From positions 35,774,684 through 35,838,683 of the forward strand of contig NC_057719.1 in the NCBI RefSeq assembly GCF_004010195.1: 64,000 bases of DNA. The letters run 5' to 3'. A program made the position numbers and the translations under genes. The notes under the pieces are model-generated. The model did not search any database and was not told the DNA's origin. It saw nothing but the letters and a program-made list of their open reading frames with translations. The DNA comes from Chiloscyllium plagiosum. Taxonomy: Eukaryota. Positions 21,429-21,536 of the stretch are shown here, piece after piece; the first letter of the stretch is position 1, and each line of letters starts with the position of its first letter.

Positions 21429-21536
21429 TGGCTTATTCATTGCATCATTTAGGAGTTGTACTGTTTTTTCCCAATCATTCTGTTTATTCTCTTCGCAGAC
21501 CTGCAATGCTGTCCTTCCTTGTTGATCCACAATATG
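21429..21536 (-). CDS. KRIT1: Isolated KRIT1 (CCM1)-like internal coding exon, end of ankyrin region before the FERM domain
   Basis: TTTTATGCTTGTTGATTATTCCAG | [36 protein letters not shown] | GTAAGT. 108 nt, open frame, phase 0-0. Closely resembles remembered human KRIT1 [36 protein letters not shown] (36 aa). Confidence 0.85.

Follow-up and report, generated by a model that had tools for sequence, protein, structure and literature searches.

The window, i.e. the whole 64-kb stretch of DNA that was analysed, carries on its minus strand coding exon 1 and exon 2 of PPP2R5C and, downstream of these, a copy of a single coding exon of KRIT1 that lies between two parts of a young LINE (Table 1). 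The KRIT1 exon is an open exon of 108 nt, or 36 codons, in phase 0-0, with a CAG acceptor (...TTATTCCAG directly before the exon) and a GTAAGT donor directly after it; a re-reading of the sequence bore out this description, first given in the initial annotation, and placed the exon on the minus strand. The identity of the exon rests on PDB and Pfam: KRIT1 (5d68_A, E 2.8e-11) is its sole match among 177,635 PDB sequences, and Ank_KRIT1 its sole Pfam match (E 8.5e-5, under the whole-domain cut-off), and both agree with the earlier assignment. Three further observations also held, namely that the exon shares its strand with the MPNKNKKDK exon of PPP2R5C and lies 9.4 kb downstream of it, that an N gap is found 1.4 kb away, and that a motif scan of the 64-kb window finds no neighbouring KRIT1 exons. 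A short interspersed repeat of very high copy number, abundant in RNA reads of both strands, also lies in the KRIT1 intron sequence, at 21103-21278.

The initial annotation had placed the KRIT1 exon in intron 1 of PPP2R5C and proposed a splice junction of GACAAG to CATATT. Exon 2, a 69-nt exon overlooked at the time, stands between the two, so that the KRIT1 block sits in intron 2; the proposed junction would skip a genuine exon of PPP2R5C and is therefore wrong. Intron 2 is ~53 kb long in the assembly, and exon 3 is located ~22.2 kb ahead of the window start. In the 7.76 kb that precede the window (L046), a long N run abuts the window start, and another assembly gap is present at window 7570-8221. 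Exon 3 of the host gene matches B56-delta in the PDB, and a second B56 paralogue with a long N-terminus, likely PPP2R5D, is found at C3:136,275,127-136,275,285 (L110), with 70% identity across exon 3. The best match to a dynein heavy-chain N-terminus shares the strand of exon 3 and is found ~170 kb further downstream. In human, PPP2R5C adjoins DYNC1H1, and these matches, taken with the human synteny, support the identification of the host gene as PPP2R5C.

Table 1. Features of the window around the KRIT1 exon and in the host gene.
Feature	Position in window	Strand	Remarks
Older repeat, left half, interrupted by the young LINE	19200..19503	+	
Young LINE 5' part, up to ORF2 start	19504..19855	+	95-97% to 39 other matches listed; 95.5% to L066 1-352
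Residual 167-N gap	19856..20022	.	Ends on the right at one common base in all four ectopic copies
KRIT1 intron-exon-intron block, 2,505 bp; likely wrong gap fill	20023..22527	.	Identical in the 4 ectopic copies; 2 differences from true locus
Older antisense LINE reverse-transcriptase fragment of KRIT1 intron	20023..20940	-	End approximate; from ORF translations, 5' sides
KRIT1 coding exon copy, 36 aa, end of ankyrin domain	21429..21536	-	AG/GT, phase 0-0; identical in 5 places
Young CR1-like LINE 3' end, (TTCTATG)n tail	22528..22847	+	96% to L066 2954-3273
Older LINE-like repeat, right half	22848..23450	+	Tail-flank junction seen in two DNA runs
PPP2R5C exon 2, 69 nt (EPPKTGKSGKSGTKDAQENAEVE)	30527..30595	-	Phase 0-0; overlooked in the initial annotation
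PPP2R5C coding exon 1 (MPNKNKKDK)	30922..30948	-	Phase 0

Copies of the block and the KRIT1 locus

The exon is not the orphan it had been taken for. A 511-bp query around it gave five full-length matches of 100% among the 40 matches listed, and five copies of the block could be delimited: in C10 (the window), C24, C26 and C5, the last of which harbours two, at 87.85 Mb and 68.07 Mb. The unit common to these copies extends from window position 20023 to ~22845. The copy at C5:68.07 Mb is the real, intact KRIT1 gene, in which both neighbours of the exon, SSPLHFAAGGG upstream and YEKVKIYR downstream, are present together with further KRIT1-like exons, and not a single N occurs within 40 kb. A hole at this exon in the true KRIT1 locus, which had been named as the mark of a misassembly, is ruled out by this gap-free sequence with the exon and both its neighbours in place. 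The other four copies, hereafter ectopic, all end in the 3' end of the young LINE. At the true locus the same sequence is a 320-bp, 5'-truncated insertion in the KRIT1 intron upstream of the exon, flanked by AAGTAG on either side; no young LINE is found there at the 5' end of the block, and only there does the older reverse-transcriptase fragment run on unbroken beyond the base that corresponds to 20023.

The block and the LINE end attached to it differ sharply in divergence. Across all six pairs of the four ectopic copies, the block shows 0 differences in 2,505 bp, whereas the attached LINE ends show 11-18 differences per 284-301 sites, with a mean of 4.9%. Had the two travelled together, ~123 differences would be expected in the block, as against the 0 observed, and the even divergence along the unit that is expected of a retrotransposed or transduced unit was not found. 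Hardly any private differences occur between 22534 and 22644, but they are dense from 22645 onward, a pattern to be expected where every locus retains its own tail and the switch of path falls within the shared stretch. All four ectopic blocks depart from the true locus at 2 sites, which are the same in each, and one early base of the LINE segment, common to the ectopic copies, also differs from it; we read these shared bases as the other allele or the read majority, though a common master element would yield them as well.

The left ends of the ectopic copies are equally uniform. All four start at the identical base, directly after N runs of 167, 777, 1,099 or 1,912. The variable 5' truncation expected of a retrotransposed unit is thus not seen, with the reservation that any common partner inside the gaps would be hidden. 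To the left of the gap, young-LINE sequence is found in three of the four ectopic copies, where it ends at different points.

The LINE slot and foreign fills in the family

On the plus strand, the KRIT1 block and its N gap occupy the interior of a young LINE that itself interrupts an older repeat. The 5' part of the young LINE, which ends at the start of ORF2, is taken here to be ORF1. In nine of the 11 family loci tested, the left and right halves of the older repeat adjoin each other (at an offset of +3 to +8 in eight and of -19 in one), and a right-flank match is absent in the other two. This contiguity of left and right flanks within one older repeat indicates that the scaffold around the slot is sound and that the slot represents one insertion. 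The adjacency was established from DNA, a tblastn search of ORF2 against the left flank having given no match. AAGGGAT is present at both 19503 and 22848, where it overlaps the LINE; a clean duplication does not agree with the flank offset of +3 to +8 found in eight loci. At the other three ectopic copies, no convincing target-site duplication was found.

The slot has approximately the size of the LINE sequence that it lacks. In the window, gap and block together measure 2,672 bp, and the LINE interior missing there, as judged from L066, a near-complete member of the family, measures 2,601 bp (+71 bp). When gap plus fill was compared with the expectation for a plain element, the window gave 2,981 versus 2,915-2,990, a range drawn from gap-free members of which two were later found to be chimeric. 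The copy at C5:87.8 Mb was likewise in range (3,911 versus 3,893-3,968) and that in C24 exceeded it by ~100-180 bp (3,591 versus 3,411-3,486), these expected lengths being derived partly from gap-containing and chimeric members and from one full-length member, L066, in which a small stretch is duplicated internally. Beside the gap of the C26 copy no young-LINE 5' part is found, and the size match therefore covers the other three ectopic copies. The distance from anchor to tail in the window, 2,983, is close to the median of 2,993 for the 31 of 39 members with a usable tail, a median that leaves out six members without a tail match and two with a partial one.

L066 (C24:19,800,200-19,805,199) is the sole near-complete, gap-free member among 39. 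Its ORF2 encodes endonuclease and reverse transcriptase domains (PF14529, PF03372, PF00078) and is split over two frames at an internal duplication of ~113 bp, which is also seen in L059, L074, L077 and L080 and may either be genuine or result from another wrong fill. The CR1 label of the family is provisional and follows the initial annotation. In 31 of the 39 other family members, an N gap is present within 5 kb. Half of the eight gap-free members (L054, L056, L070 and L089) have a non-family interior of 2.0-2.7 kb, which deviates from the missing length by -103 to +69 bp; as for the remainder, two are LINE nearly throughout, one ends with its contig and one has no tail. In L054, L056, L070, L089 and L091-L108, the fills are unrelated sequences of 2-2.7 kb that are 100% identical over many contigs.

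Recurrence was searched for three of these fills, and all three recur at 100% identity (23 of 51, 9 of 65 and 8 of 8 among the matches listed). Their left ends are variable, almost all matches extend to the end of the fill that faces the LINE tail, and the fills join the LINE 5' part at differing positions. In the L070 group, four of the six loci examined have an N run that ends at one common offset, as observed with KRIT1. The tails differ by 7-14 bases in the L070 group, by 10-22 in the L056 group and by 0-16 in the L089 group, in which some tails differ by just 0-2 bases and the contrast is weaker. The recurrent fills in young LINE copies are likely a genome-wide artefact of gap filling.

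Four sequencing runs, in the form of short contigs and RNA reads, were aligned to 20023-23450. In two DNA runs, the KRIT1 block is covered by a contig of 1.3 kb, at depths of 15 and 4.05 respectively, and the end of the LINE tail with the C10 flank by one of 355 bp (depth 9.85 and 3.44). The latter contig matches C10 with no differences, so the animals of both runs carry the C10 LINE insertion. The ratio of block depth to flank depth is 1.2-1.5x, not ~5x, a rough figure since contig depth is not copy number and individuals may differ. None of the contigs listed spans the LINE segment, and it is for this reason that we infer the wrong join from other evidence. A 700-nt contig from a probable RNA run holds the exon and departs from the genome at both splice sites. 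In a raw single-cell RNA run (X21, ~2% read) the depth on the exon was zero, which is uninformative.

Origin of the block and its significance

Short-read assemblies are subject to false duplications and to chimeric gap fills, which arise when the wrong branch through a repeat is taken during gap closing. The block shares with such false duplications the identical copies of unique sequence beside residual N, the entry via a young repeat and a size that fits the gap estimate, and the case of the window is no different in kind. In all probability, the KRIT1 block is a systematic gap-filling chimera, which would involve no event in the animal and no exon shuffling. A wrong join appears likely from the intact source, the shared LINE end, the split divergence, the fixed left end, the size match and the recurrence of other fills. 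The scaffolder would have left a gap of roughly the right size at the unassembled middle of the LINE, and the filler would have extended from the LINE tail of the locus itself, across the initial ~115 bp of the shared segment, which hardly vary, before taking the branch into the unique KRIT1 intron. The LINE 3' end in the window is likely the shared stretch in which the fill switched loci. From there the fill may have run for 2.5 kb, halting at a fixed point inside an older repeat, and the leftover of the gap estimate would have stayed as N. The chromosome likely carries an ordinary LINE ORF2 in the slot, and in PPP2R5C exon 2 is likely spliced to exon 3; the KRIT1 exon in the window is thus unlikely to be a real feature, and a hybrid gene is not to be expected. 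The initial annotation had favoured an exon that arrived as genomic DNA or by transduction and could give an in-frame PPP2R5C-KRIT1 chimera, a proposal that gives way to a gap fill on the evidence of divergence, ends, slot size and depth.

It is very unlikely that the block is a real non-autonomous element, formed from an antisense KRIT1 transcript that ended in the intronic LINE tail and was retrotransposed to four places with the exon. Such an element would account for the fact that every copy ends at the LINE tail, with a variable length of (TTCTATG)n and unrelated 3' flanks, and the 2 block bases in which the ectopic copies agree against the source are what a master element would give. In addition, recognition of a shared 3' tail is known for stringent LINEs, including CR1, and for shark SINE/LINE pairs, according to PMC3747384. 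However, block and tail should then diverge alike, contrary to the absence of differences in the block, and the element does not explain why a LINE 5' part lies upstream, why the copies share one 5' end next to N, why the slot is as long as the LINE interior or why other fills show a like pattern; the depth ratio also speaks against it. A real and very recent patching by ectopic gene conversion or repair, in which older LINE interiors were replaced by KRIT1 sequence primed via the shared 3' end, does account for an identical block with divergent tails, but is highly improbable: it requires four independent events with the same end base, each by an assembly gap and each keeping the element length, and a repetition of all this for no fewer than three further donors, at 8-23 copies each, and depth gives no extra copies in the two runs that carry the C10 insertion. 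As for a misplaced contig, removed from the KRIT1 locus to leave a hole there, its probability is negligible, for although an N gap adjoins the block, the exon is still in place at the KRIT1 locus, where 40 kb are free of N, and the assembly shows four additional copies where a move would give one. The assembly error that the initial annotation had offered as an alternative, citing the nearby N gap and the flanking LINE sequence, is thus supported as an error and abandoned in its moved-contig form, since four duplicates exist.

L1 3' transduction places the cargo behind a complete LINE that also stands upstream of it at the source. The window resembles this process, and exon shuffling, in that an exon with its intron flanks is found at new sites in a LINE-bounded unit; unlike in L1 3' transduction, the cargo in the window replaces the LINE interior, and the source is without a young LINE at the 5' end. 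A unit that ends in a LINE 3' tail is also seen in mobilisation by stringent LINEs, e.g. shark HE1/HER1 (PMC3747384). Tail and body of such a unit should have one history, whereas the histories of tail and body differ in the window. In a limited literature search, no paper was found on the exact pattern for this LINE family, nor on CR1 exon transduction in sharks.

A biological import of the KRIT1 block is unlikely; its import for the reading of this assembly is a practical one. Host exons inside retroelements and dispersed duplications of 100% identity in this assembly ought to be checked for the same signature, because four of the eight gap-free LINE copies sampled hold foreign fills. There is a small chance that the interiors of this young shark LINE family have been replaced, in repeated and very recent events, by 2-3 kb of host DNA from upstream of the 3' ends of other copies. 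If true, such swapping would spread intact exons into other genes, here a KRIT1 exon placed in frame in intron 2 of PPP2R5C, and would constitute an unusually active route of exon shuffling in a vertebrate.
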